Under the pieces are notes generated by a model. That model made no database searches. It saw only the letters and a list, made by a program, of their open reading frames with translations, and was not told where the DNA came from. From Solirubrobacteraceae bacterium (GTDB lineage Bacteria > Actinomycetota > Thermoleophilia > Solirubrobacterales > Solirubrobacteraceae): a stretch of 24,115 nt of DNA. The stretch is from contig DATMJM010000239.1 in assembly GCA_035553935.1 (NCBI GenBank), positions 1 to 24,115 on the forward strand. The letters are read 5' to 3'. Made by a program: the position numbers and the translations under genes. This document shows, one piece after another, positions 9,122 to 22,773 of this stretch. Positions within the stretch are counted from its first letter, which is position 1; each line of letters opens with the position of its first letter.

Positions 9122-10363
9122 GTGACAGACCAGGTCGCGGTGGCGCTCCCGCGCAGGGCGCTCCTGGGAAGCGCCGCGGGCAAGGGAATCGAGGCGCTCA
9201 CGCTCGCTGCCCTCGTGCTGCTCGTGCCGCGCGCGCTCGGTCCCGCCGACTACGGCGGCTTCGCCGTCGGCCTCGCCGTCGCCACCGGGATCGCGACGGC
9301 GACCGGGATCGGCGGGCCGGCGCTCTTCGCACGCGTGCTCGCGCCGCTGGACGGCACACGGCGCGGTGACGTCGCGCGGGCGCTCGTGCTGCGCATCGGC
9401 CGCACGCGCGCCGGGCTGCTCGCGGCGCTCGGCGCCGCGGCACTGGTCGGCGCGCTGCTCGCGCCCGGCTCCGTCGCGCCGCTGCACGTCGCGCTCGTCG
9501 GCGCGGCCGCGCTGCTCGGCACCGCCGCGACGCTGCTGTCGCAACTCGCGCTCGGCGTCGAGCGGAGCGTCGCGTGGAGCCTGCGCTACCCGCTGGAGAA
9601 CGGCGTCATCGTCGCCGCCGCGCTCGCGCTGCATCCGAGCGCCGGCCTGGACGGGGCGCTCGCCGCGATCGCGCTCGGCGCCGCCGCGGCGCTGGTGCTC
9701 GCAGCGGCGACGGCGGCGCCGGCGCTGCGCGGCGCCCGCCGCAGGGCGGACCTGCCGGCGGGCGCGCTGCGCTTCGCGCGGCTGCAGGCGGCGGGCGGCG
9801 TGCTGACGCAGGTCGTCCACCGCGGCGCCGCGCCGGCCTGCGCGCTCGCCGGGGCGGGAGCGGTCGCAACGGGGCACGCGGCCATCGCCGCCGGCGCGGC
9901 GCTCGCGATCACCTATGCCGTCGTGCAGACGATGCTCGTCGCGCTGCCCGGCGCCGCCCGCGCGCACACGAGCGATCCGCGCGCCGCCGAGCGCATGCTG
10001 CGGCGGACCGCCGTCTGGTGCGCGTGCGTAGCGGTGCCCGCCTGCGCGGTCGCCGCGCTCGCCGCCGAGCCGCTGCTCGCGGGCGCGCTCGGCGAGCAGT
10101 TCGGCGGCGCGGCCGGGGCGCTGCGGATCGCGCTCGCGGCCGCCGCGCTGGCGCCGTTGTGGGCGCTCGCCAACCAGCTCGCCGCGGTGCGTGCGCGGCC
10201 CGGCGCCGTGCTCGCGGGGGCGGCGGCCGGCGCGGCGGCGTTCGCCTGGACGGCCGTGCTGGCCGTGCCCGGCTCCGGAGCGAGCGGCGCGGCGGCGGCG
10301 ATGCTCGCGGGCGTCGCAGCCACGACCGCCGCCACGTCGGCCGCGCTGCGGAGGCGCGCGTGA
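9122..10363 (+). CDS. Wzx/MOP-superfamily polysaccharide flippase-like membrane protein
   Basis: Many hydrophobic segments; N-terminal LVPRALGPADYGGFA (R.LG...YG.F) and later LGEQFGGA..AL pattern typical of Wzx-type exporters. Confidence 0.7.
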   Translation: MTDQVAVALPRRALLGSAAGKGIEALTLAALVLLVPRALGPADYGGFAVGLAVATGIATATGIGGPALFARVLAPLDGTRRGDVARALVLRIGRTRAGLLAALGAAALVGALLAPGSVAPLHVALVGAAALLGTAATLLSQLALGVERSVAWSLRYPLENGVIVAAALALHPSAGLDGALAAIALGAAAALVLAAATAAPALRGARRRADLPAGALRFARLQAAGGVLTQVVHRGAAPACALAGAGAVATGHAAIAAGAALAITYAVVQTMLVALPGAARAHTSDPRAAERMLRRTAVWCACVAVPACAVAALAAEPLLAGALGEQFGGAAGALRIALAAAALAPLWALANQLAAVRARPGAVLAGAAAGAAAFAWTAVLAVPGSGASGAAAAMLAGVAATTAATSAALRRRA

Positions 10364-11175
10364 TCTCCGTCGTCGTGCCGACGTGCGACCGTCCCGCGGC
10401 CCTCCGGCGTTGCCTGGCCGCGCTCGCGCGCCAGGACGCCGAGGCCGACCTCGACGTCGTCGTCGTCGACGACGGCACCGCCGCCGGCGGGAGCGTCGAA
10501 GCGCCGGGCGCGCGCGTCGTGCGCGCCGGCGGCCGCGGCCCGGCCGCGGCGCGCAACCTCGGCGCGCGCGCGGCGCGCGGGAGGGTGATCTGCTTCACCG
10601 ACGACGACTGCGCGCCCGCGCCCGGCTGGGCGCAGCGGCTCGCGCGGGCCTGCGCGGGGGGCGGCGCGGCCGCCGGCGCGACGGTCGCAGACCCCGCGGC
10701 CGGCGCCTGCGCCGCCACCGCGCAGCTGCTCGCCAACACGCTCATGCTCACGTCGCGCGACGCGGCCACCGGCGGGCTGCGCTTCGCGCCGACGTGCAAC
10801 CTCGCCTGTCACGCCGAGACCTTCGCCGCGCTGCCGTTCGACGAGTCCTTTTCGCTCGCGGCGGGCGAGGACCGCGACTGGTGCGCGCGGCTCGTCGCGA
10901 CCGGCGCGCTGCTGCGCCACGTGCCGGACGCGGTGGTCGTGCATCGCCCGCAGCTCGGCGTTCGCGGGCTCGCCCGCCAGCAGCTGCGCTACGGCCGCGG
11001 GGCGATCGCCTTCCGCGACGCGGGCGGCGCGCCAGCCGGCCGCGCGTTCTACGGCCGGCTCGCGCGGGGCTGCGCGCGCGAGGGCGCCGGCGTCGCGGCG
11101 CTCGTCGCGCTCGCGCAGGCGTCGGTCGCGGCCGGCGCGGCGCTTGAGCTAGCGCAGCAGCGGCTCGCCCGCTAG
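10360..11175 (+). CDS. Glycosyltransferase family 2
   Basis: GTG10360 overlaps the flippase TGA; ISVVVPT.DR, VVVVDDG, AARNLG, CFTDDDC, GEDRDWC, QQLRYGRG. Confidence 0.92.
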   Translation: MISVVVPTCDRPAALRRCLAALARQDAEADLDVVVVDDGTAAGGSVEAPGARVVRAGGRGPAAARNLGARAARGRVICFTDDDCAPAPGWAQRLARACAGGGAAAGATVADPAAGACAATAQLLANTLMLTSRDAATGGLRFAPTCNLACHAETFAALPFDESFSLAAGEDRDWCARLVATGALLRHVPDAVVVHRPQLGVRGLARQQLRYGRGAIAFRDAGGAPAGRAFYGRLARGCAREGAGVAALVALAQASVAAGAALELAQQRLAR

Positions 11176-12651
11176 CCCGTCGCGCTGCACGCCGCAGACG
11201 GCGGCGACCGTCGCCGCGACGTCGGCGAGCCGCGGCGGGCGCCCCGGCTCGATCGGCTCGTGCGCGCCGGCGGCAACGACCGCCCACGCGTCGCCCGGCG
11301 TGTGGTTGCCCGAGCGTCCGCTGCCGGTGCCGCGCCGCATGACGTCCCCGAACCGCGGCGAGTGCACGCCCGCGAGCGTCGTCGCCGGGCGCTCGCTCCA
11401 CTGCACGACGAGGTCGGGCAGCTGTCCGGCGCGCGCGCCGGCATGGTGCTCGGCGACGCGGTCGACGCGCGCGACCGCCGGCGCTCCATCGGAGTCGACG
11501 AACGTCCGCAGGCCATCGCCGATGGTGTCGAGCAGCGCGTCCGCCTCGTTCGGGGAGACGATGCCGTCGCGCTCGCGTCCGCGCAGGTTCAGCCGGATGT
11601 AGCCCTGGTTGTCGGCGGGGTGGCAGAACGCGGCCGTCTGCGACCAGTCGATCCCGCGCAGCTCCAGGCGCGCCGTCAGCTCGAGCGCGACGCGATCGGG
11701 CAGCGCGCGGGCGATCGCGCCGCGCGCAGCGGGCGGGATCGCGGCGCGCAGGCGCCAGATCGCTCCCGCCCCTCCGTCGCCACCCGAGCGCAGCGGGCCG
11801 CCGTCGAGCACCGCTGCGAGCATCTCGGGCAGCAGGTCCGCGCGCGAGCTGTTGACGTCCATCCCGACGGCCGACGTGACGATGACGTCGGCGTCGCCGG
11901 GCAGCGTCTCCAGCACGCGGCCGAACGCGCTGTCGACGGCGCCGTAGACATCCTCGAGCGCCGTCTCGAGGAGCGCGCGGTCGCGGCCCGCCGGCTCCTC
12001 GGCGAGCTGGGAGAGGTCCCAGAACTGATGTCCGGCGAGATGCGCCGCGCTGAACGTCAGCCACGCGAGGTCGTAGGCGTCGCGCGCGAGCGCCTCGGTC
12101 GCGGCCGTGGCGACGCGCTCGGGCGCGGCGACGAGCTTGGCGCGCAGGCCGAGCAGCTCGCGCGCGGTCGGGCGGCCGAAGATCTCGGTCGCGTGCGGCC
12201 CGCGGCCGTGGCGCGCGGCGAGCTGCGCCCCCGCGTCGCGCGGCAGCGACCAGCGCGGCAGCACGACGCGGTCGCGAAAGCCCCAGCCGCAGACGTAGGT
12301 GCCGTTCCACTCGCCTGGCGGGCGGCTCTCGTACGGATCGATCGCCAGCGTCCGCAGCCCGGCGCGCGCGAGGCGCTCCCAGATCGCCGGCGGCGCCGGG
12401 AACGCCGTCATGTAGCGGGCGCGCTGCGCGGCGGCGTCCCACTGGAAGGGATAGAAGAGCCCGTGGTCGGCGAGCTCGATCCCGCTGTAGAGCGTGTGAA
12501 ACGCGCCCGCCGCGAAATGGTCGGCGGGCGTGTCGAGCGTGATGCGGCGACCGCGCTCGATCAGCCCCGCGAGCACCGGCAGGCGCCCGGTGGCGAGCAT
12601 GCGATCGACGACGGCGACGCTCGCCGCGTCGAACTGCAGCACGCAGATCAC
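11149..12651 (-). CDS. Alkaline phosphatase superfamily (NPP/phosphodiesterase-like) protein with atypical active site
   Basis: LQFDAA…GRLPVLAGL, HTLYSG…HG, LAGHQFWD, GYIRLNLRGRERDGIV, PDLVVQW, SGNH, PRLADVAATV. GTG start overlaps the upstream TGA. Confidence 0.85.
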   Translation of the reverse strand: MICVLQFDAASVAVVDRMLATGRLPVLAGLIERGRRITLDTPADHFAAGAFHTLYSGIELADHGLFYPFQWDAAAQRARYMTAFPAPPAIWERLARAGLRTLAIDPYESRPPGEWNGTYVCGWGFRDRVVLPRWSLPRDAGAQLAARHGRGPHATEIFGRPTARELLGLRAKLVAAPERVATAATEALARDAYDLAWLTFSAAHLAGHQFWDLSQLAEEPAGRDRALLETALEDVYGAVDSAFGRVLETLPGDADVIVTSAVGMDVNSSRADLLPEMLAAVLDGGPLRSGGDGGAGAIWRLRAAIPPAARGAIARALPDRVALELTARLELRGIDWSQTAAFCHPADNQGYIRLNLRGRERDGIVSPNEADALLDTIGDGLRTFVDSDGAPAVARVDRVAEHHAGARAGQLPDLVVQWSERPATTLAGVHSPRFGDVMRRGTGSGRSGNHTPGDAWAVVAAGAHEPIEPGRPPRLADVAATVAAVCGVQRDGLAGEPLLR

Positions 12652-13583
12652 GTGACCTGCACGCCCTCGACCGCAACCGCCTCGCCGCCGACCGCGTCCG
12701 AGCGGCGCGCGGCGTCGAGCACGCGCATCACGGCCGCGCCCTCGCCGGCGCTCGCCAGCGGGCCGGCGTCCGCGCCGCGCAGCGCGCGGCCGTAGGCCTC
12801 GAGCTGCAGCGTCAGCGAGCGCACGAGGGGGTGCGCCAGCGGCCGCACCCGCGCCGCGACCGCGCGCAGCCGGCCACCGCGCTCCGCGCGGGCCACGCGC
12901 CCGCCATCGGCGCGGCGAACCTCGACGAGCTCGTGGTGCGGGCGGTTGGTCGCGCACTCGATCTTGACCTCCGCGCGCGTCGTCGCGAGCACGAGTCCGG
13001 CGTGCTCGCGCGTGCAGTGCGCGCGCACCGCGAGCGGCAGCGAGCGCGTGAGGTAGAGGGCGAGGTCGACGAGGTGCGGCCCGAGGTCGAGCAGCGCGTC
13101 GTCGCCGCGCGCGACCGGCCGCCACGACTTGCGGCGGTAGTGCAGCACCATGTTCAGCTCGAGGTCGCCGTCCGCCGGCACGCGCCGGTCGAGCTCGACG
13201 CCCTGGTCGAAGCGGCGGTTGAAGGCGATCCACGGCGCGGGCGCCAGTGCAGCGATCCGCAGCGCGCCGGCGGCGTCGGGCGCGGGCGGCTTCTCGACGA
13301 GCGCGGCGAGGCCGGATCGCGCGGCGGCGGCGGCCGCCGCCTCGTGATCCTCGGGCGGCGTGCAGACGATGACGCCGTCGAGGGTGGTGGCGTCCAGCAG
13401 CTCGTCCGGCCGCGCGTGCGCCGAGGCGCCGAGCTTGCCGGCCACGAGCCCGCGGCGGGCGCGGTCGGGATCGGCCACCGCGACGATCTCGATGCCGTCC
13501 GCGGCGCGCGCCGCCGGCACGTAGCCGAGCTCGGCGAGCCGGCCGCAGCCGACGAGGCCCAGGCGAAGCGCGCCGCCGGTCAT
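12648..13583 (-). CDS. Gfo/Idh/MocA-family oxidoreductase
   Basis: RLGLVGCGRLA, VAVADP, VIVCTPP..H, LVEKP, FNRRF, DLGPHLVD. ATGA overlap with the upstream GT2. Confidence 0.92.
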   Translation of the reverse strand: MTGGALRLGLVGCGRLAELGYVPAARAADGIEIVAVADPDRARRGLVAGKLGASAHARPDELLDATTLDGVIVCTPPEDHEAAAAAAARSGLAALVEKPPAPDAAGALRIAALAPAPWIAFNRRFDQGVELDRRVPADGDLELNMVLHYRRKSWRPVARGDDALLDLGPHLVDLALYLTRSLPLAVRAHCTREHAGLVLATTRAEVKIECATNRPHHELVEVRRADGGRVARAERGGRLRAVAARVRPLAHPLVRSLTLQLEAYGRALRGADAGPLASAGEGAAVMRVLDAARRSDAVGGEAVAVEGVQVT

Positions 13584-14488
13584 GCCGTCGCCCGTCCGCG
13601 GCGCGCCCACAGCACGACGCCGGCGGGCACGGAGGCCACGGCCGTGAGGTGATGGACGAGGTGCAGCGGCACGCCGGCGAGCGCGAGGCGCGGCCCGCCG
13701 AGGCGCGCGAGCAGCGCATAGAAGCCGGCGTTGGGCACCATCATCGCCGCGACCGCGGCCGCCGCGAGGCGTCCTCGGCCAGTTGCCGCGGCGGCCAGCG
13801 CCATGACGGCGGCGCCCGCCGCCACGCGGTGGCGCCAGGAGAGGTTGAGCGCGCGGGCGCCGGCGCCGCCGCGTTCCAGGCGCAGCGCCACCCACGGCGC
13901 GCCGCGGGCGGCGAAGTCGGTGCGCAGCATCGACGCCAGCGTCCAGCGCTTGAGGTGCGTGCCGCGCGCCGCGGGCTCGAGCGCGATGCGGCGACCCGCG
14001 GCGTGCAGGCGCATGCCGAGCTCGACGTCCTCGATCGACGGCCGCGGGTAGCGGCGCGCGTCGAAGCCGCCGACGGCCTCGAACGCCTCGCGACGGATCG
14101 CGCCGATGCCCGCCCAGAACGTGCTCGCCGTGCCGGGCGATGACGTGTGCACGTGGTGGTGCAGGAGGTTGCGAAAGCGCGAGATCGCGGCCGGCGAGGC
14201 GGGCCGGTCGTCGTAGGCACCGAAGACGGCGTCGAGGCGCGGATCGGCGTCGAGTGCCGCCCGCAGCCGGCACAGCGCGTCGGGGTGGACCTCGACGTCG
14301 GCGTCGATGAACACGACGATCTCGCCCTGCGTCCGCGCCACGCCGGCGTTGCGCGCGGCGGCCGGCCCGCCGAGCCCCGGATCGGCCACGACCTCCACCT
14401 CGTGGGCCTGCTCCGAGCGCGCGAGCGCGGCCAGGCAGCGCGGCAGCGTGGGGGGCGCGTCGGTGGCTGGGATGACGACGGTCAGCAA
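13580..14488 (-). CDS. Glycosyltransferase family 2 with hydrophobic C-terminus
   Basis: LTVVIPA, AARNAG, VVFIDADV, GGFD, SIEDVELG. Start placed at TTG14488; the ORF track extends it to 14530 through the operator region. Confidence 0.88.
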   Translation of the reverse strand: MLTVVIPATDAPPTLPRCLAALARSEQAHEVEVVADPGLGGPAAARNAGVARTQGEIVVFIDADVEVHPDALCRLRAALDADPRLDAVFGAYDDRPASPAAISRFRNLLHHHVHTSSPGTASTFWAGIGAIRREAFEAVGGFDARRYPRPSIEDVELGMRLHAAGRRIALEPAARGTHLKRWTLASMLRTDFAARGAPWVALRLERGGAGARALNLSWRHRVAAGAAVMALAAAATGRGRLAAAAVAAMMVPNAGFYALLARLGGPRLALAGVPLHLVHHLTAVASVPAGVVLWARRGRATA

Positions 14489-14519
14489 GTTAGGAGAGCC
14501 TAAGTTAGAGTGGCCTAAC
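14489..14519. promoter_or_regulatory. Tandem DtxR/IdeR-like iron boxes in a 31-bp divergent intergenic region
   Basis: TTAGGAGAGCCTAA (14490-14503) and TTAGAGTGGCCTAA (14505-14518); 12/14 and 11/14 matches to TTAGGTTAGCCTAA, the first 14 nt of the DtxR consensus. Confidence 0.65.
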
Positions 14520-16016
14520 ATGGGAGGCACTTCACGGGAGCCGTTCGCCGTGCTCGGGGGCGGACCGGCGGGATTGACCGCAGGCTACGTGCTCGCGCGG
14601 GCCGCGCGTCCGGTCGTGGTGTTCGAGGCGGGCGATCAGGTCGGCGGGCTGGCGCGCACGGTCGTGCGCGACGGCTACCGGTTCGACCTCGGCGGCCACC
14701 GCTTCTTCACGAAGTCCGACGAGGTCCAGCGCCTGTGGCGGCAGGTGCTGGGCGAGGAGCTGCTCGTGCGCGAGCGGCTGTCGCGGATCTACTGGCGCGG
14801 ACGGTTCATCGACTATCCGCTGCGGCTCGCCGACGTCGTGCGCAAGGTCGGGCCGCTCGAGCTCGCGCGCTGCGGCGGCTCGTACGGCGCGGCGCTGGCG
14901 CGGCGGGCGCGGCGGCGCGCGCCGCAGACCTTCGAGGACTGGGTCTGCGACCGCTTCGGCCGGCGCCTGTTCGAGCTGTTCTTCAAGAGCTACACCGAGA
15001 AGGTGTGGGGCGTCCCCACGGCCGAGATCAGCGCCGACTGGGCAGCGCAGCGGATCCGCGCGCTGTCGTTTTCGCGCGTGGTTCGCGCGGCGCTGCTCAA
15101 GGACGGCGCGAACGTGCGCAGCCTCATCGAGGAGTTCCACTACCCGCGCCTCGGGCCCGGCCAGATGTGGGAGGCGATGGCGGCGGAGATCGTCGGCGCC
15201 GGCGGTCAGGTCCGGCTCGGCTCGCGCGTGTCGCGGATCGAGCTGCGAGACGAGCGTGTGGCGGCGGTGCACTGCGCGGGTGATCGAGTCGCGGTCGGCG
15301 ACGTCGTCTCGTCGCTGCCCCTGCGCGACGTCGTCGCGCTGGCCGACCCGCCGCCGCCCGACGCCGTGCGCCGCGCCGCCGCGGGGCTGCGCTACCGCGA
15401 CTTCCTCACGGTCGCGCTCGTCGTACGCGGCGAGGACCTCTTCCCCGACAACTGGATCTACGTGCACGACCCGGGCGTCCGCGTCGGGCGGATCCAGAAC
15501 TTCCGCGCCTGGAGCCCGGCGATGGTGCCCGACCCGGACCGCACCTGCGTCGGCCTGGAGTACTTCTGCTTCGAGGGCGACGACCTGTGGAACGCGAGCG
15601 ACGACGCGCTCGTCACACGCGCGACGCGTGAACTCGACGAGATCGGCCTGGCGTCCGCCGAGCGCGTCGAGCGCGGCCATGTCGTGCGCGTGCCCAAGGC
15701 CTATCCGATCTACGACGCTGACTACGAGGCGCGCGTCGCGACGATTCGCGGCTGGCTGGAGTCGATCACGAACCTCCAGCAGGTCGGCCGCAACGGGCTG
15801 CATCGCTACAACAACTCCGATCACTCCATGCTCACCGCCCTGCGCGCGGTCGAGAACGCCTGCGACGCGACGTCCCACGATCTGTGGGCGGTCAATGCCG
15901 ACGACGAGTACCACGAGGAGTCTCGCCCGCGCGTCCAGCCCTACCGCGACGCGCCCGAGACGCCGGCGCTGCGCGGAGGCGACGGCCTGGCGGTCGCCGG
16001 GCAGTCGATCGAGTAG
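14520..16016 (+). CDS. FAD-dependent oxidoreductase, UDP-galactopyranose-mutase-like (COG1232-type)
   Basis: GGGPAGL, GGLART, GGHRFF, YTEKVWG, FHYPRLGPG, LEYFC, PKAYPIY, GRNGLHRYNNSDHSM. Confidence 0.85.
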   Translation: MGGTSREPFAVLGGGPAGLTAGYVLARAARPVVVFEAGDQVGGLARTVVRDGYRFDLGGHRFFTKSDEVQRLWRQVLGEELLVRERLSRIYWRGRFIDYPLRLADVVRKVGPLELARCGGSYGAALARRARRRAPQTFEDWVCDRFGRRLFELFFKSYTEKVWGVPTAEISADWAAQRIRALSFSRVVRAALLKDGANVRSLIEEFHYPRLGPGQMWEAMAAEIVGAGGQVRLGSRVSRIELRDERVAAVHCAGDRVAVGDVVSSLPLRDVVALADPPPPDAVRRAAAGLRYRDFLTVALVVRGEDLFPDNWIYVHDPGVRVGRIQNFRAWSPAMVPDPDRTCVGLEYFCFEGDDLWNASDDALVTRATRELDEIGLASAERVERGHVVRVPKAYPIYDADYEARVATIRGWLESITNLQQVGRNGLHRYNNSDHSMLTALRAVENACDATSHDLWAVNADDEYHEESRPRVQPYRDAPETPALRGGDGLAVAGQSIE

Positions 16017-17233
16017 ACGCTCCACTCGCCGCTGCGGGCGACCGGCGTCGCCGCGGCGCGCACCTCGCGGCGCAGGCGCGGCGACGCCTGCAGGCCGACC
16101 ACGAACGCGCCCGACAGGCGCGGCGGCCTGCCGAAGCTCACGACGTGCGAGAGCGGCACGCCGAGCTCCCACGCCAGCGCCGTGCGCACGAGCGCGTCGC
16201 TCGTCGCCAGCCGCCCGCAGGCCAGCAGCCGGTCGCGGCCGACGGCGCCCGCGAGCTGCTTCAGGCGGTCGTGCGAGTCGCTGATCCGCGCCGCGCTGTG
16301 CCACGCGTGCGGCACCTCCGCGACGCGCCCGGGAAGGCCGACCGCCGTGACGGCGCCAGCGGCTGCGGCCAGCGCGACGAGCGCCGGCCGCGGCCGCGCC
16401 GCCAGCGCCGCCAGCCCCACTCCGCCGAGCACGCCGGGCTGCCGCGCTTCATGGCGCCCGCGGCGGTCGGCGAGCGCAGCGATCGCGAGCGGCCACGCGA
16501 CCGCGAGCGGCAGCGCGAGCGCCCAGCCGAGCGCCTCCAGCGGGTCGCTCGTCTGCGTCTGCGCCCGCGCGGCGCCAGCGCCGCCGGCGGCGAGCAGGTC
16601 CGGGGCGACCCACAGCGCCGGCACCAGGGCCGCCAGCGCCACCGCGAGCGGCCGCGTGCGCGGCTGCGCGCGCCAGCACCACAGCCCGTACAGCGCGAGC
16701 AGCGGGAGCGCCTCCGCGCGCAGGAGGGCGGCCAGCGCACCGAGCGCGAGCGCGGTGCGCGCGTGCCCGGCCAGGCCGGCGCGGACGGCCGCGAGGACGA
16801 AGGCGACGAGCAGCGGCTCGCCCATCCCGCCTGCGACCTGGCGGTTCCAGGGCGTGACCTCGTCGGACAGCAGGACGAGGCACACCGCGGCGAAGGCCCC
16901 GGCCGCCGCGCGCAGCGCGCGCGGCCTGCCCGCCGTCAGGTGGACGGCCAGCTCGGCGGCCAGCCCGAGCGACGCCAGCCACGCCGCGCGCACGAGCACG
17001 AGCCACAGCTCCGGAGCGGCGTCACCGGCGAGCGACAGCAGCGCGGCCAGCAGGACCGGCAGCGGCTTCCACGACGGCCCGGTCGTCATGTCGACGTCCA
17101 GGTCGGTCAGCTCGCGCCCCCACACGAGCCATGACCACGCGTCGTAGACCGGCTCGGCGGCGATCGCAAGCGAGGCGGCCGCGAGCGCCAGGCAGGCGGC
17201 GGCGGCGAGGAGGAGGAGTCGGCGGGTCGTCAC
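15941..17233 (-). CDS. Polytopic membrane protein, putative GT-C-fold glycosyltransferase
   Basis: PVYDAWSWLVWGREL…GPSWKPLPVLL loop after the first TM, GMGEPLL, LLRAEALP (L.RxE), multiple TM segments and a C-terminal soluble domain. Confidence 0.7.
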   Translation of the reverse strand: MTTRRLLLLAAAACLALAAASLAIAAEPVYDAWSWLVWGRELTDLDVDMTTGPSWKPLPVLLAALLSLAGDAAPELWLVLVRAAWLASLGLAAELAVHLTAGRPRALRAAAGAFAAVCLVLLSDEVTPWNRQVAGGMGEPLLVAFVLAAVRAGLAGHARTALALGALAALLRAEALPLLALYGLWCWRAQPRTRPLAVALAALVPALWVAPDLLAAGGAGAARAQTQTSDPLEALGWALALPLAVAWPLAIAALADRRGRHEARQPGVLGGVGLAALAARPRPALVALAAAAGAVTAVGLPGRVAEVPHAWHSAARISDSHDRLKQLAGAVGRDRLLACGRLATSDALVRTALAWELGVPLSHVVSFGRPPRLSGAFVVGLQASPRLRREVRAAATPVARSGEWSVYSIDCPATARPSPPRSAGVSGASR

Positions 17234-17244
17234 GACAGGAGGCG

Positions 17245-17258
17245 TTAGGCTGGCCTAA
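17245..17258. promoter_or_regulatory. DtxR/IdeR-like iron box
   Basis: TTAGGCTGGCCTAA: perfect 6-bp inverted repeat; 12/14 match to TTAGGCTAACCTAA; overlaps the -10 candidates TAGGCT/TAAGAT upstream of an Fe3+ ABC operon. Confidence 0.8.
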
Positions 17259-17309
17259 GATGCGCCCGCTGATCCAGGCCGTACCGACCCGAGGAGGAGA
17301 GCGCCGAGC

Positions 17310-18311
17310 ATGCTAATCCGTCGTCGCCTTGCGCCGATCACCGTACTTGCCGCCCTGCTCGGCGGGCTCACCGCATGCGGGTCGGGCGACGACGACGCGC
17401 TGACGCTGTACTCCGGGCGCATCGCACCGATCCTCAGCCCGGCGGTCAAGCAGTACGAGGACGCGTCCGGCTTCGACGTCAAGACCCGCTACGGCGACAG
17501 CCCGTCGCTCGCGGCGACAATCGTCGAAGAGGGCCGCAACTCGCCCGCGGACCTGTTCTTCGCGCAGGACGCGGGATCGCTCGATGCCGTCGAGAAGGCC
17601 GGCCTGCTGGTCAAGCTGCCGGCCGACATCCTGGCGAAGGTCGACCAGGGCTTTCGGTCGCAGGCCGGCGCCTGGGTGGGCGTGACCGGCCGCTCGCGGG
17701 TCATCGCGTACGGCCCCGACGTGGCGCGCTCCGAGCTGCCCGACTCGCCCCTGGAGCTGACCGAGCCGAAGTGGAAGGGCCGCGTCGGGTGGGCACCCAG
17801 GAACGCCTCGCTGCAGGGCTACGTCACGGCGCTGCGGCTCGTCGAGGGCGAGGACGTCGCGAGGAGGTGGCTCGAGGGCATGGTCGCCAACGACGCGCAG
17901 GTCTACGACTCCAACATCCCGGTGCGCGACGCGATCGCCAAGGGCGAGATCGACGTCGGCCTCATCAACCACTACTACGTCGCCGAGGCGCAGGCAGAGG
18001 ACCCCGACTATCCCGTCAAGGTCCACTTCCCGAAGGACGGCCTCGGGTCGCTCGTCAACGTCTCGGGCGTCGGCGTGCTCGCCTCCTCCGAGCACAAGGA
18101 CCGGGCGCTCGCGTTCGTGCGCCAGATGCTCTCGGCGCAGACGCAGCGCTACTTCTCCGACAGCTCGAAGGAGTACCCGCTCGTCGACGGCGTGCAGGCG
18201 CCCGAGGAGCTCATCCCGCTCGAGGAGATTCCGGCGCCGGACGTCGACCTCGCCCAGCTCGGCGACCTGAAGGGCACGCTGAAGCTCATGCGGGAGACCG
18301 GAGCGTTGTAG
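17310..18311 (+). CDS. fbpA: Fe3+ ABC transporter substrate-binding lipoprotein (FbpA/FutA/SfuA family)
   Basis: Lipobox LTA-C, TLYSGR, SPADLFFAQDAG, GRSRVIAY, GLINHYY (Tyr-Tyr iron ligands), EYPL; SD GAGGAGG. Confidence 0.92.
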   Translation: MLIRRRLAPITVLAALLGGLTACGSGDDDALTLYSGRIAPILSPAVKQYEDASGFDVKTRYGDSPSLAATIVEEGRNSPADLFFAQDAGSLDAVEKAGLLVKLPADILAKVDQGFRSQAGAWVGVTGRSRVIAYGPDVARSELPDSPLELTEPKWKGRVGWAPRNASLQGYVTALRLVEGEDVARRWLEGMVANDAQVYDSNIPVRDAIAKGEIDVGLINHYYVAEAQAEDPDYPVKVHFPKDGLGSLVNVSGVGVLASSEHKDRALAFVRQMLSAQTQRYFSDSSKEYPLVDGVQAPEELIPLEEIPAPDVDLAQLGDLKGTLKLMRETGAL

Positions 18312-18358
18312 GCGTGGACGCCGCGGCGCCAGCACGCGCGCTCGGCCGCCGGCTGCCG

Positions 18359-18413
18359 GCGCCGAGGACACGCCCCGGCGCCGGCAGCCGGCGCCGGGGC
18401 GTGTCCTCGGCGC
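18359..18413. repeat. Perfect 27-bp inverted repeat with 1-nt centre (55-bp palindrome)
   Basis: gcgccgaggacacgccccggcgccggc-a-gccggcgccggggcgtgtcctcggcgc, checked base by base. Confidence 0.95.
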
Positions 18414-18429
18414 GCGGCGCCCGCCGCTC

Positions 18430-19968
18430 GTGCTGCTGGCGCTCGGGCTCGCGGTCGGCCTCGGCGCGGCGCTGCCGGCGCTGTACCTCGTCGTCGCGGT
18501 GCTCGACGACGCCGGCGCGGCGCTCGACGCGGTGCTCACGGACCGCACCCTCGGCCTGATCACCCGCAGCCTCGGCCTCGCCGCCGCGGTCACGGCGACC
18601 GCGATCGCGATCGCGGTGCCGCTCGCCTGGCTGACGGTCCGCTCCGACCTGCCGGGGCGGCGCATCTGGGCGACGCTGCTGACGCTGCCGCTCGTCATCC
18701 CGAGCTACATCGGCGCGTACCTGTTCGTCTCCGCGCTCGGTCCGCGCGGCGCGCTAGCCGACCTCCTCGGCGTCGAGCGGCTGCCGTCGATCTACGGCTT
18801 CACCGGCGCCTTCCTCGTGCTGACGCTGTTCACCTATCCGCTGGTGCTGATCCCGCTGCGCGGCGCGCTGCAGCGGATGGACCCCGCGCTCGAGGAGGCC
18901 GCGCGGGTCATGGGCCGCGGCCAGCGCGACGTCTTTCGCAGCGTCGTGCTGCCCCAGCTCGCGCCGGCGATCGGCGCGGGCGGCGTGCTCGTCGCGCTCT
19001 ACGTGCTCAGCGACTTCGGTGCGGTGTCGATCATGCGCTTCAACTCCTTCACGCACGACATCTACGTCGCCTACCAGTCCGGCTTCGGCCGCACGGAGGC
19101 GGCGGCGCTCGGCATGGTGCTCGTGCTCGTCATGCTCGTCCTGTTCGCGGTGTACGCGCGCGTGCGCTCCGCGCGCGTGCTGCACCGCGCCTCGCCGGGC
19201 ACGCCGCGGCCGGCCGCGCCCGTGCGGCTCGGGCGCTGGCGCTGGCCGGCGCTGGGATTCTGCGCCGCCGTCGCCGGGATCGCGCTCGTGCTGCCGGTCG
19301 GCGTGCTCGCCTACTGGGCGACGAAGCAGGTCTCCAGCGGCCTGGAGCTCGGCGCGCTCGCCTCCAACGGCTGGCACTCGCTGCTGGCCGCGGCCGCCGC
19401 CGCGCTGGCGGCGAGCCTCGCGGCGATCGTCGTCGCGCTGCTGGCCGTCCGCTACCCGAGCCTCGTGACGCGGCTCGTCGAGCGCGTCGGCTACGCCGGC
19501 TACGCGCTGCCGGGGATCGTGGTGGCGCTCGCGCTCGTGTTCTTCACGACGCGCGTGGCGCTGCCGCTGTACCAGACGCTCGCGGTGCTCGTCTTCGCGC
19601 TGGCGATCCACTACCTGCCGCTCGCGGTGAGCCCCGTCGGCGCGTCGCTGCTGCAGGTGCCGCCGCGCCTGGAGGAGGCGGCGCGCGGCCTCGGCCGCAG
19701 CCCGCTGGCGGTGCTGCGCACGATCACCACGCCGCTCGTGGCGAGCGGCGTGCTCGGTGGCGCGGCGCTCGTGTTCCTGCACGCGCTCAAGGAGCTACCC
19801 GCCACGCTCCTGCTGGCGCCGATCGGATTCGACACGCTCGCGACCGACGTCTGGCGCCAGACGTCCTTCGGCTTCTTCGAGGCCAGCGCGATCCCGGCCC
19901 TGCTTCTGCTCCTGATCGCGGCGCCGCCTTTGTACCTTCTGAGTGCGAAGGGAAGCGTCGGGAGGTAG
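18430..19968 (+). CDS. fbpB: Fe3+ ABC transporter permease (two EAA modules); native 5' end probably GTG18314, now out of frame
   Basis: LPLVIPSYIGA, D.ALEEAARVMG, LSDFGAV, PPRLEEAARGLG, LKELPATLLL.P.GFDTLA. Confidence 0.92.
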   Translation: MLLALGLAVGLGAALPALYLVVAVLDDAGAALDAVLTDRTLGLITRSLGLAAAVTATAIAIAVPLAWLTVRSDLPGRRIWATLLTLPLVIPSYIGAYLFVSALGPRGALADLLGVERLPSIYGFTGAFLVLTLFTYPLVLIPLRGALQRMDPALEEAARVMGRGQRDVFRSVVLPQLAPAIGAGGVLVALYVLSDFGAVSIMRFNSFTHDIYVAYQSGFGRTEAAALGMVLVLVMLVLFAVYARVRSARVLHRASPGTPRPAAPVRLGRWRWPALGFCAAVAGIALVLPVGVLAYWATKQVSSGLELGALASNGWHSLLAAAAAALAASLAAIVVALLAVRYPSLVTRLVERVGYAGYALPGIVVALALVFFTTRVALPLYQTLAVLVFALAIHYLPLAVSPVGASLLQVPPRLEEAARGLGRSPLAVLRTITTPLVASGVLGGAALVFLHALKELPATLLLAPIGFDTLATDVWRQTSFGFFEASAIPALLLLLIAAPPLYLLSAKGSVGR

Positions 19969-19970
19969 CC

Positions 19971-21110
19971 ATGCCAACGACGAACGCCAACGGGGTCGCG
20001 AACGGCGGCGGGCTCGCTCCGCCGTGCGTGGGCCTGCGGCTGCACGGTGTGCGCAAGGCCTTCGGCGCCGTTCGCGCGGTCGACGGAGCGAACCTCGAGC
20101 TGCGCGCCGGCGCCACGTGCGCGCTGCTCGGCCCAAGCGGCTGCGGCAAGACGACGACCCTGCGACTGATCGCCGGCCTCGAGCGCCCCGATGCCGGCGA
20201 GATCGTCGTCGGCGGCCGGATCCTCTCGAGCGCGGACAGCTTCGTCCCGGCGGAGGAGCGGCGGATCGGGATGGTCTTCCAGGACTACGCGCTTTTTCCG
20301 CACATGGACGTCGCCGGCAACGTCGGCTACGGGCTGGGCCGCAGGCCCGATCCGAGCCGGGTCCGCGAGACGCTCGAGCTCGTCGGTCTCGGCGGTGCGG
20401 AGAAGCGCCCCGTGCACGAGTTGTCGGGCGGCCAGCAGCAGCGCGTCGCGCTGGCGCGCGCGCTGGCGCCGACGCCCGACCTCGTCCTGCTCGACGAGCC
20501 GTTCTCGAACCTCGACGCCTCGCTGCGCGACCGGCTGCGCCAGGAGGTCTCGCAGATCCTGCGCACGGCGGGCGTGACGGCGCTGTTCGTCACGCACGAC
20601 CAGGAGGAGGCGATGAGCATCGCCGAGACCGTCGCCGTGATGCGCGACGGCCGCGTGGAACAGGCGGGGACGCCCGAGGAGGTCTACCTGCGTCCGGCCT
20701 CGCGCTGGATGGCGGAGTTTCTCGGCGACATCGAGGTACTGCCGGGCGACGCCCGCGACGGCCGCGCCAGCTGCGAGCTCGGAACGCTGCCGGCGGGCGG
20801 CGTCGACGGCGCGTGCGACGTGCTAGTGCGGCCCGAGTCGGTCGCCATCGGCGTCAGCGGACCTGCCAGCGCCGCGCACGCGGAGGTCGTGACGCGGCGC
20901 TTCTTCGGCCATGACCAGCTCGTCGGGCTGCGCCTGGCGTCGGGGCAGGTCATCTGCTCGCGGCGGCTCGGCTATCCCGCGTGGCATCCCGGCGACCACG
21001 TGCAGGCGTGGATCGAGGGACCCGTCGAGGTGCTGCCACGTGCCAACGGTGCGGGGCCGTCAGCCTCCGAGCCGGACCTCGCCGTCGGCGATCACAACGA
21101 CGTCGCCTGA
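19971..21110 (+). CDS. fbpC: Fe3+/polyamine-type ABC ATPase with C-terminal TOBE-like domain
   Basis: GPSGCGKTT, FQDYALFPH, LSGGQQQRVALARAL, LLDEP, VTHDQEEA; SD GGAGG. Confidence 0.95.
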   Translation: MPTTNANGVANGGGLAPPCVGLRLHGVRKAFGAVRAVDGANLELRAGATCALLGPSGCGKTTTLRLIAGLERPDAGEIVVGGRILSSADSFVPAEERRIGMVFQDYALFPHMDVAGNVGYGLGRRPDPSRVRETLELVGLGGAEKRPVHELSGGQQQRVALARALAPTPDLVLLDEPFSNLDASLRDRLRQEVSQILRTAGVTALFVTHDQEEAMSIAETVAVMRDGRVEQAGTPEEVYLRPASRWMAEFLGDIEVLPGDARDGRASCELGTLPAGGVDGACDVLVRPESVAIGVSGPASAAHAEVVTRRFFGHDQLVGLRLASGQVICSRRLGYPAWHPGDHVQAWIEGPVEVLPRANGAGPSASEPDLAVGDHNDVA

Positions 21111-21923
21111 CACCCGCGGACGGTCGTCGGCCCACTCGCAGTCGATCCGGCTCGGGCGCCCCATCTCGACGCCCTGATGCACGACGAGCCGCTCGGTCGC
21201 CGGATCGCGGTCGCGCAGGTAGGCCAGCAGCGGCCCCGCCGCCGAGCCGGTGCCCGGGTCCTCGGTGACGCCGCGAGGATCGAGGAAGAAGCCGCGGGCC
21301 CGCGCGGCGCCGTGGTCGACGTCGAGGTCGGCGAGATAGAGGACCATCGCCCCGATCGGCTCGAGCAGGGCGCGGATCGCGTCCCGCTGCGGAGCGGCAG
21401 CGGCGAGCGCGGCGCGGTCCTTCAGCGGGACCATGAGGTGAGCGAAGCCGGTCGAGACGACCTGCGGCTCGAGCTGCGGGTCGGCGGCGGACACCGGCAG
21501 CCCGGCGGCGGCCAGGACGTCGGCCGGGCTCGGCCGCGCGCCGAAGTCCGGCGGCTCCTGCAGCATCGACGCCCGCGCGCGATCGCCGTCGAGCCGAACC
21601 TCGACGGGCTGCAGGCCGGCATGCGTCTGCTGGACATAGCGCGCCTTCTCGCGCCCGCTCGCACGCGCGACCGCGACAGCGGTGCCGAGCGAGGGGTGAC
21701 CGGCGAACGGCAGCTCGCCGGGCATCGCCCAGATGCGGTTGCGGTAGTCGGCGCCCGGCGCGGTCGGCGACTGCACGAACGTCGTCTCCGACAGCTGCGT
21801 CTCGCGCGCGAAGGCGAGCATCGTGTCGTCGTCGAGGCCGTCGGCGTCGTGCACGACGGCAAGCTGGTTGCCCGCCAGCGGCACGTCGGTGAAGACGTCG
21901 AGCCAGGTGAGGCGGCGCCGCAC
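21060..21923 (-). CDS. PhzF-family (DAP epimerase fold) isomerase
   Basis: DVFTD.PL.GNQLAV, LSETTFV, ELPFAGHPSLG, EDPGTGSAAG, QGVEMGRPS; GTG start at 21923. Confidence 0.93.
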   Translation of the reverse strand: MRRRLTWLDVFTDVPLAGNQLAVVHDADGLDDDTMLAFARETQLSETTFVQSPTAPGADYRNRIWAMPGELPFAGHPSLGTAVAVARASGREKARYVQQTHAGLQPVEVRLDGDRARASMLQEPPDFGARPSPADVLAAAGLPVSAADPQLEPQVVSTGFAHLMVPLKDRAALAAAAPQRDAIRALLEPIGAMVLYLADLDVDHGAARARGFFLDPRGVTEDPGTGSAAGPLLAYLRDRDPATERLVVHQGVEMGRPSRIDCEWADDRPRVSGDVVVIADGEVRLGG

Positions 21924-21936
21924 CGGTTGCTCGCGG

Positions 21937-22773
21937 TCAGTCGTCGAAGTTGAAATCGCGCGGGGGCCGCTGCTCGAACCAGAGGCGGTCGTGCTCGGGC
22001 GTCTCCTCGAGGAACTCCGGGGTCTCCTCGAGCAGGTCCTCACCGCCGGGCTCGTCGTCGGCGGGCACGATGTCGGGCTCGTGCGCGGCCGGCGGCGGCG
22101 CGTCCGGATACGCGACCGGCGGCGACGCCGGCCGGTCGTACGGCTCGCGATCGCGATCGCCGGCGGACGGCTGCTCCGGCTCCTCGGGCTCGATCCCGCG
22201 CTTGTGCCTGCGTCCGGGGCGCAGGCGCGAGAACAGCGAGGGCGGCTGCTCGGCCTCGTCGGCGGGCGGCTCCGGCTCGGACTCCGGCTTCCACGGCTCG
22301 CGCGCAGGCGGCGGCGGAAGCGGCGGCGGCTCGTAGGAGACGGGCTCGCGAGCCGGCGGGGGCGTTGCGGGCGGCGGATCGAGATCGAGGGGCTCGCGCC
22401 CGGGCGGCGTCGCCAAGGGCGGCGGATCCACGTCGGCGTCCTCCCGCGTCGGCGGCGGAATGACGGGCGACGGATCGGCGCCCAAGCCCTCCCGCCGCGT
22501 CGCGGCCTCGGGCGGCGGAGCGAGGTCCGCGGCCTCCCGCGTCGGCGGAGGAGTGACCGACGGCCGGTCGTGCGCGAACGGCGGCGGCGCTCCGGCCTCC
22601 TCCTCCGCGTCCTCGCCGGAGTCGAATGTGTCGGCCATCTCGGGCACGCCCTCGGCCGACCGGCGCACCGGGCCGAGCGCCTCGGTCTCCAGCCGGGCGA
22701 CCTCACCGGCGTCTGCGCCGCGGCGCCGCTTGAGCTCGAGATGCTCGCGGATGGCGTCGTCCAGCAGTCCCAT
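21937..22773 (-). CDS. Hypothetical protein with ordered ends and a long Pro/Glu/Asp-rich disordered linker
   Basis: MGLLDDAIREHLELKRRRG… at the N-terminus; …EDLLEETPEFLEETPEHDRLWFEQRPPRDFNFDD at the C-terminus; fits between flanking same-strand genes with 12-13 bp gaps. Confidence 0.82.
   Translation of the reverse strand: MGLLDDAIREHLELKRRRGADAGEVARLETEALGPVRRSAEGVPEMADTFDSGEDAEEEAGAPPPFAHDRPSVTPPPTREAADLAPPPEAATRREGLGADPSPVIPPPTREDADVDPPPLATPPGREPLDLDPPPATPPPAREPVSYEPPPLPPPPAREPWKPESEPEPPADEAEQPPSLFSRLRPGRRHKRGIEPEEPEQPSAGDRDREPYDRPASPPVAYPDAPPPAAHEPDIVPADDEPGGEDLLEETPEFLEETPEHDRLWFEQRPPRDFNFDD

Follow-up and report, generated by a model that had tools for sequence, protein, structure and literature searches.

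The window analysed in this study is the whole of contig C239, a stretch of 24,115 nucleotides from a Solirubrobacteraceae assembly (680 contigs, 3.48 Mb, 72.8% GC, 80% complete). Three palindromic boxes are present in it, in the promoters of a set of glycosylation genes and of an adjoining ferric-iron importer. Judging from sequence comparison, it is likely that these palindromes are operators of a metal repressor of the IdeR/DtxR family, by which the glycosylation genes would be coupled to the importer. Four glycosylation genes are clearly placed behind predicted operators: those of a GT2 glycosyltransferase, a Gfo/Idh/MocA oxidoreductase (Gfo), a protein of the alkaline-phosphatase superfamily (AP) and a flavoenzyme that resembles UDP-galactopyranose mutase (UGM-like). 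The gene of a GT-C-fold membrane glycosyltransferase is probably controlled by a box as well, because a box lies 11 nt from its start codon and because, in other lineages, the GT-C gene either has a box on each side or follows the fbp genes. The genes of a Wzx-type flippase and of a second GT2 appear to be outside box control in this genome.

Position and sequence of the boxes

Box 1 (TTAGGAGAGCCTAA, 14490-14503) and box 3 (TTAGGCTGGCCTAA, 17245-17258) are perfect copies of the 14-bp palindrome TTAGGNNNNCCTAA, and box 2 (TTAGAGTGGCCTAA, 14505-14518) differs from it by one mismatch (TTAGA). No further site with up to two mismatches to this palindrome was found in the window. The pattern TTAG-N6-CTAA occurs 3 times in the window, compared to an expectation of 0.01 from 100 shuffles, none of which reached 3, and the whole 3.48-Mb assembly contains only 200 TTAG words. 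An earlier sequence-only reading of this DNA had described three palindromes, rare in GC-rich DNA and all situated in two divergent intergenic gaps. Its sequences and positions proved exact, the rarity is borne out by these counts, and the divergence of both gaps is confirmed by start codons on opposite strands.

The 31-bp gap between the TTG of the GT2 gene (14488, - strand) and the ATG of the flavoenzyme gene (14520, + strand) consists of boxes 1 and 2 and three other bases, so that both genes show the arrangement box-N1-start. On the - strand, box 1 includes the -10 hexamer TAGGCT (14497-14502), placed as TAGGCT-N8-TTG before GT2, and on the + strand box 2 includes TAGAGT (14506-14511), placed as TAGAGT-N8-ATG before the flavoenzyme. 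The gap of box 3 is bounded by the GTG of the GT-C gene (17233, - strand) and the ATG of fbpA (17310, + strand). Here the hexamer is again TAGGCT (+ strand, 17246-17251); the box lies 51 nt 5' of the fbpA ATG, and the ensuing leader of about 50 nt carries a GGAGGAG Shine-Dalgarno sequence. Leaderless transcription from the box hexamers is plausible, because box-free promoters of the same genome (those of Wzx, of an IdeR-like gene and of an epimerase gene) have the form TANNNT-N7/8-start. An 18-codon open reading frame (ORF; 17260-17316, + strand), beginning one base past box 3 and overlapping the fbpA ATG, was dropped as a functional element since it is seen in only 5 of 13 orthologous gaps.

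According to a study of IdeR (PMC8464063), one CCTAA quintet is recognised per IdeR subunit, and a single dimer takes quintets 1 and 3. A site with just two quintets is bound, and on the basis of electrophoretic mobility shift and crystal data the 14-bp TTAGGNNNNCCTAA was proposed there as the redefined consensus; the minimum for binding was given as T at quintet position 3 together with C at position 1 or 2 (PMC8464063). The boxes of the window are composed of two inverted CCTAA quintets four bases apart. All 6 quintets have the bases of this minimum, including the weakest, TCTAA in box 2, in which C2 and T3 are kept.

Distribution of the motif in the genome

As shown by a genome-wide scan, a check of the kind that the sequence-only reading had proposed, TTAGGNNNNCCTAA is a mark of genes for siderophores, ferritins and ferric uptake. 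The assembly contains 10 perfect copies, compared to 0.39 expected from base composition, and all ten lie no more than 75 nt upstream of a start codon. Among the one-mismatch copies, 6 of 7 are within about 50 bp of a perfect copy, four of them in tandem register at an offset of 14-15 bp. Apart from the genes of the window, the box is found at a siderophore operon (two IucA/IucC synthetases, three decarboxylases and an aminotransferase), an ABC ATPase gene divergent from this operon, the gene of a siderophore-binding protein of the Peripla_BP_2 family, three ferritin genes, a pair of cNMP-binding and transglutaminase-like genes, and, at a contig end, a short ORF whose start resembles a signal peptide. 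The divergent ABC ATPase gene has the arrangement box-N1-start, and the first gene of the siderophore operon has box-N3-GTG.

Several details of these other box-bearing loci were also observed. A perfect box on contig C505 (L006, 1922-1943) has a CATG placed symmetrically at either side; one ATG opens the cNMP-binding protein and the other a 7-codon mini-ORF before the transglutaminase-like gene. A small Cys-rich ORF (59 amino acids, beginning MK.LVKPKKGCCKSKPRCKRCP, without a Pfam match) has its start on the final A of an iron box and is divergent from ferritin; its loci are contig C387 (L004, 7153-7332, - strand) and contig C327 (L003, 10545-10787, + strand). The pair of Cys-rich ORF and ferritin, together with the box, is kept in four relatives (G007, G009, G014 and G024), and the ORF is a candidate new member of the iron regulon. 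PRI, the IdeR-controlling peptide of a 2026 preprint, was considered as a match for the small Cys-rich ORFs and is unrelated by position. Directly 3' of the ORF on contig C387 (544-7125, - strand) lies a polysaccharide cluster encoding an epimerase/dehydratase, a Bac_transf priming transferase, an ABC-2 exporter and a GT4. An iron link of this cluster is doubtful and it was not counted as iron-regulated, because a separate promoter, TACCAT-N8-ATG, precedes its first enzyme gene.

Conservation of the boxes within the genus

Phylogenetic footprinting, also proposed in the earlier reading, was carried out on both gaps. For the GT2/flavoenzyme gap, 15 orthologous gaps were stacked, including that of G013, an unpublished genome on which no result depends. 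In 14 of 15 same-genus orthologues both outer pentamers of box 1 are invariant and the N4 spacer varies; the half-sites are thus fixed while the spacer drifts, and the one fixed central base of the spacer is that which supplies the hexamer's T. In 11 of 15 orthologues box 2 persists as TTAGAGTG(C/G)CCTAA. Box 3 is present in all 13 orthologous gaps examined as TTAGGCTG(G/C/A)CC(T/G)AA, with TTAGGGTG in one. The same three boxes are found on an independent metagenome contig that is 99% identical. Rearranged loci retain boxes as well. In G009 the flavoenzyme is gone from the locus, and boxes persist at GT2 and at GT-C/fbpA; in G024 an FbpA-like gene with a box is located elsewhere in the genome, and the tandem glycosylation boxes are retained.

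These comparisons bear on the simplest alternative, that the palindromes are mere promoter sequence, made of a -10 hexamer and a leaderless start context, with no regulator involved. Each box does hold a TANNNT hexamer at the right distance from the start codon. Other leaderless promoters of the genome, however, have the hexamer without the palindrome, and the CCTAA half, which plays no part in the promoter, is conserved as well as the hexamer. The motif is moreover confined to about ten loci, of which 7 of 9 concern iron uptake or iron storage. This explanation is therefore regarded as very improbable.

Conservation of the boxes beyond the genus

GT2 homologues and their downstream genes were compared in 150 genomes sampled from the order. 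Outside the genus, the succession GT2, Gfo and AP occurs in six genomes, and a box lies upstream in 5 of these 6. No box was found at GT2 homologues without Gfo-AP in the 150 genomes, nor at flavoenzyme homologues of up to 65% identity in other contexts. A scan with the AP protein revealed full-length orthologues (57-63% identical) in Acidimicrobiia, among them Iamiaceae, Ilumatobacteraceae and Microthrixaceae, as well as in Pseudonocardia, including the cultured P. zijingensis, and in a metagenome-assembled genome (MAG) of Mycobacteriales. Most of the distant AP loci also contain GT2, Gfo, the second GT2 (GT2b) and Wzx, many contain GT-C, and many an FbpC-like ATPase.

The 100 bp upstream of GT2 were then compared with background windows, in which a box occurs at 0.2% with up to one mismatch and 0.4% with up to two. 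The corresponding counts were 19 of 23 and 21 of 23 for close loci, 11 of 13 at both thresholds for mid-distance loci, and 9 of 32 and 19 of 32 for distant loci. With up to one mismatch, the GT2 box is present in 30 of 36 loci of Solirubrobacterales and related Thermoleophilia. The box-like sequence of Acidimicrobiia is flanked by a TTGACA-like -35 and a TAGAGT or TATAGT -10, and one Pseudonocardiaceae MAG has a near-canonical 19-bp box with two mismatches. The best FbpA-like gene adjoins the module in 4 of 5 distant genomes and is about 6 kb off in the fifth; one distant FbpA-like protein matches solved Fe3+ binding proteins with E 1e-60. These findings indicate that the predicted link of the box to the GT2-Gfo-AP operon holds far beyond the genus.

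Probable regulator and weighing of the evidence

Near-complete relatives have two DtxR-family genes. One of the two is IdeR-like, with IdeR (1fx7, 106 bits) and DtxR as its best PDB matches. Its product keeps Ser37, Pro39 and Thr40, in a recognition helix S-A-P-T-V, and also His79, Glu83, His98, Glu105 and His106. This paralogue is the probable box-binding protein; in the present assembly its gene falls into two pieces, at the ends of contigs C110 and C629. The IdeR-like gene itself is without an iron box (contig C629, 2430-2520; relatives L041-L045), and a conserved inverted repeat, CGATGCTAC...GTAGCATCG, surrounds its TAGCAT-N7-ATG leaderless promoter.

Several observations weigh against control of the locus by an IdeR-type iron repressor. 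The 19-bp box of four quintets, which takes two overlapping dimers, is matched by the three boxes at only 14, 13 and 13 of 19 positions; its inner quintets are absent, the units standing instead in tandem at a 15-bp offset. A canonical 19-bp iron box thus does not fit (13-14 of 19 positions matching), and of the DtxR/IdeR/DmdR1 operator named in the sequence-only reading the family stands but the 19-bp form gives way to 14-bp single-dimer units in tandem. Box 3 shows no TANNNT hexamer on the side facing GT-C, and the GT-C gene of G024 has no box. For this reason, of the five of seven glycosylation genes formerly placed under the boxes, GT2, Gfo, AP and the UGM-like gene are retained, and GT-C is considered probable rather than certain. 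In G018 both glycosylation boxes have decayed, with a change of CCTAA to CCGCA, and the fbpA box remains, and at a few other loci glycosylation boxes were not detected. The genomes compared are related and not statistically independent, so the box counts overstate independence. Finally, a second, MntR-like paralogue exists, and the IdeR-like paralogue has Glu at both Met10 and Cys102 of the primary metal site.

Met10 and Cys102 are the primary-site ligands that differ between the iron sensors DtxR and IdeR and the manganese sensor MntR. The effector could therefore be manganese, or iron together with manganese, in which case the operators would be real and the locus metal-regulated rather than iron-regulated. 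In favor of this, the Met10/Cys102 pair is found in neither paralogue (Glu/Glu in the IdeR-like, Asp/Asp in the MntR-like); the MntR-like paralogue (best PDB matches 5zr4 and 8pvt) is intact in this assembly, gives its top scores to MntR models, and adjoins an NRAMP gene in G014. Yet the motif is located at siderophore synthesis, siderophore-binding, ferric-binding and ferritin genes and not at the MntR-NRAMP operon, and the MntR-like paralogue lacks the Ser-x-Pro-Thr residues that read CCTAA. A repressor that senses manganese, alone or with iron, is accordingly judged unlikely. The metal assigned to the proposed repressor, iron, is deduced from the regulon and not from the ligands of the regulator.

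Proposed regulation

In the proposed mechanism, each predicted 14-bp box would be bound by one repressor dimer. Each box spans the -10 hexamer and reaches within one base of the start codon or of the presumed transcript start, so that RNA polymerase would be obstructed by repressor bound there. Plentiful iron would shut off the GT2-Gfo/Idh/MocA-AP operon, the flavoenzyme gene and fbpABC, and probably GT-C with them; when iron is scarce, the same genes would be expressed together. We infer actual binding, iron as the effector, and repression rather than activation. A search for RNA runs containing this DNA found none.

The opposite direction of control also deserves attention. IdeR is a dual regulator in mycobacteria. 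The regulator could thus activate the locus under plentiful iron, as IdeR does at ferritins, and the glycan would then be a product of iron-replete cells; the same motif does stand upstream of three ferritin genes here. At these genes, however, the distance from box to start codon is 58-75 nt at 2 of 3 and 31 nt at the third, with Shine-Dalgarno leaders following; the boxes of the glycosylation genes and fbpA, by contrast, overlap the -10 hexamer and start in a polymerase-blocking position. Shared control with an iron importer also argues for expression at low iron. Activation by plentiful iron is consequently considered quite improbable.

Genes of the locus

The GT2 gene (13580..14488, - strand) encodes 302 amino acids with a hydrophobic C-terminus and matches Pfam Glycos_transf_2 and Glyco_trans_2_3. 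Weak NCBIfam matches to EpsD, MftF and HpnI, together with an ESM Atlas cluster, place it in a CrtQ/HpnI/MftF-like grouping. It is followed by the Gfo/Idh/MocA NAD(P) oxidoreductase gene (12648..13583, - strand; Pfam GFO_IDH_MocA) and the AP gene (11149..12651, - strand; 500 amino acids; Pfam Phosphodiest, E 4.7e-8). The Gfo start overlaps the GT2 stop (ATGA) and the AP start overlaps the Gfo stop (GTGA), suggesting that the three form one operon. Neither the GT2 nor the AP-family protein gave a match in PDB sequence searches. The AP protein is the most conserved of the module, as can be seen from its identity in other classes. On the other side of AP lie the genes of the Wzx-type flippase (9122-10363, + strand), with an ESM Atlas structure of TM 0.9 to Polysacc_synt flippases, and of the second GT2 (10360-11175, + strand; assigned by Pfam), joined by a GTGA overlap behind a box-free promoter, TAGCCT-N7-GTG.

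The flavoenzyme (14520..16016, + strand; 498 amino acids) is of the NCBIfam PRK07208 type (NF005548, 650 bits) and would be leaderless behind box 2. It is UGM-like as far as sequence and modelled structure indicate: it matches Aspergillus UGM with E 5e-24 by phmmer and E 5e-34 by profile, the FAD Rossmann motif, GGH loop and Arg/Tyr positions are aligned, and the predicted fold reaches a Foldseek TM of 0.75. As part of the module, it is found in Solirubrobacterales loci and just one distant locus. A literature search for PRK07208 returned nothing. Upstream of a flavoenzyme paralogue in G008 (L024, L034), at about 100-140 nt, there are four direct GTTAG repeats with a 10-bp period (GTTAGCGCGC GTTAGAGCGT GTTAGCGACC GTTAGAACGC); they are non-palindromic, a motif distinct from the iron box.

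The 430-amino-acid membrane protein (15941..17233, - strand) has a predicted GT-C fold. In a Foldseek comparison of its model (pLDDT 79.6) with the PDB, 40 of the top 43 matches (ranks 1-40) are GT-C enzymes with TM of about 0.55. The best matches are ArnT, ALG12, AftA, PglB and AftD, and those in Swiss-Prot are ArnT and ALG12. The conserved acidic residues Glu27, Asp31 and Glu41 of the first outer loop are invariant. A stretch of 87 bp (29 codons, predicted to form a membrane helix) is missing from the gene at 16437-16455 and present in the 99%-identical contig L176 and in all listed homologues, which have 446-559 amino acids (most about 460); a short stretch past the deletion is in a different frame. 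The deletion is either a gene-disabling strain variant or an assembly error.

Downstream of box 3, fbpA (17310..18311, + strand) encodes a ferric-iron binding protein of the FbpA family (PDB 7w3w, E 9e-74; Thermus FbpA, HitA and SfuA; Pfam SBP_bac_6/8). It is followed by a two-domain ABC permease of FbpB type (18430..19968, + strand; Pfam BPD_transp_1 in two stretches), the start of which is uncertain, and an ABC ATPase of FbpC type (19971..21110, + strand; Pfam ABC_tran and TOBE_2; NCBIfam ferric ABC ATPase, 262 bits, below cut-off). The Fe3+ ABC operon announced in the earlier reading is thus recovered behind its box, with an FbpA/HitA/SfuA-family protein, a fused two-domain permease and a TOBE ATPase. 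The 99%-identical contig lacks 32 bases that are present in the window within 16455-19664 (probably 18365-18396), and in it the permease is called from 2 nt past the fbpA stop. An ORF at 21177-21953 (+ strand), used as a first synteny marker, was found to be a spurious high-GC artefact. The real gene is PhzF-like and on the - strand (21110-21950), as shown by its codon-position GC pattern and open frame.

Possible product and significance

Read most economically, these enzymes would make up a lipid-carrier pathway in which a GT-C transferase performs the last step on the outer side of the membrane. The product would then be a glycoconjugate built outside the membrane, which may assist ferric-iron capture or modify the importer; the role in capture is hypothesised because of synteny. 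Tentatively, and with less confidence than is placed in the operators, we propose that outside-membrane glycosylation (GT-C, two GT2, Gfo/Idh/MocA, AP and Wzx) may be an ancient partner of FbpABC in Actinomycetota, under IdeR-type control, yielding an envelope glycoconjugate that captures Fe3+ or a glycosylated importer. A less probable variant accepts the regulation as proposed and has as product, instead of an envelope glycan, a glycolipid of the membrane or a small compound that carries sugar and binds iron. The grouping of GT2 with CrtQ/HpnI/MftF enzymes, which glycosylate lipids or small molecules, is in agreement with this, as is the lack of an assigned substrate for the AP-family and Gfo enzymes. 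On the other hand, the GT-C enzyme and the Wzx flippase work on lipid-linked sugars at the outer face, and both are conserved in the module.

Maps of IdeR/DtxR regulons exist for corynebacteria, mycobacteria, streptomycetes and Saccharopolyspora. In the literature searched, these regulons comprise uptake, storage and some metabolic genes, with no conserved envelope glycosylation pathway, and no paper was found that links IdeR/DtxR boxes, a glycosylation module and a ferric importer. That the sequence-only reading did not recognise a surface glycan or glycoconjugate made under iron limitation as described is consistent with this search. In Thermoleophilia, Acidimicrobiia and Pseudonocardiaceae, representing three classes, a glycosylation pathway stands under predicted iron-repressor boxes beside a ferric importer. 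This suggests an unstudied step in siderophore-free iron acquisition by monoderm soil actinobacteria; if the proposal is true, an envelope glycoconjugate or glycosylation of the importer would be a siderophore-independent aid to iron acquisition. Additionally, the redefined consensus put forward in 2021 (PMC8464063) is supported by a lineage in which the 14-bp one-dimer site appears to be the normal operator. Direct testing is possible, because a cultured carrier exists, Pseudonocardia zijingensis CGMCC 4.1545.

Comparison with known systems

The boxes share with the iron boxes of IdeR, DtxR and DmdR1, and with the half site of Saccharopolyspora erythraea (PMC8464063), the inverted CCTAA quintets four bases apart. 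Their placement over iron-uptake promoters and upstream of ferritin genes is also common to these systems, as is a DtxR-family protein that keeps Ser37, Pro39 and Thr40. The differences lie in the operator unit, which is here a standard 14-bp site, often in tandem at a 14-15 bp offset, whereas the 19-bp IdeR/DtxR box is two units overlapping by 5 bp, an overlap not seen here. The probable regulator differs as well, in the two Glu residues of its primary metal site. Unlike those of S. erythraea IdeR, the targets include a glycosylation module, which was not found in the text or two supplementary files of PMC8464063.

The importer resembles FbpABC, HitABC and SfuABC in its ferric-binding protein, two-domain permease and TOBE-domain ATPase, but it belongs to a monoderm actinobacterium, and in three classes it is linked, physically and by predicted regulation, with genes for GT-C, GT2, Gfo and AP. 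With the eukaryote-type UGMs of Aspergillus fumigatus and Trypanosoma cruzi, the flavoenzyme has in common a length of about 500 amino acids, the FAD and GGH motifs, the Arg/Tyr positions and the fold; its identity to them is only about 20%.

The glycosylation module itself can be compared to ArnC/ArnEF/ArnT and GtrA/GtrB/GtrC, lipid-carrier systems that glycosylate outside the membrane. The resemblance lies in a GT-C transferase, for which ArnT is among the best structural matches here, and in a GT2 associated with the membrane, a flippase-like protein and oxidoreductases that modify sugars. The GT2 of the window, however, does not appear to be of GtrB/ArnC type by sequence (no PDB sequence match; grouping with the CrtQ/HpnI/MftF types), and the flippase is of Wzx type rather than a small GtrA or ArnEF. 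The arn operon of Salmonella is iron-responsive via PmrAB. In contrast to that sensor of external Fe3+, control of the present module would be exerted by a cytoplasmic repressor, with expression under low iron.

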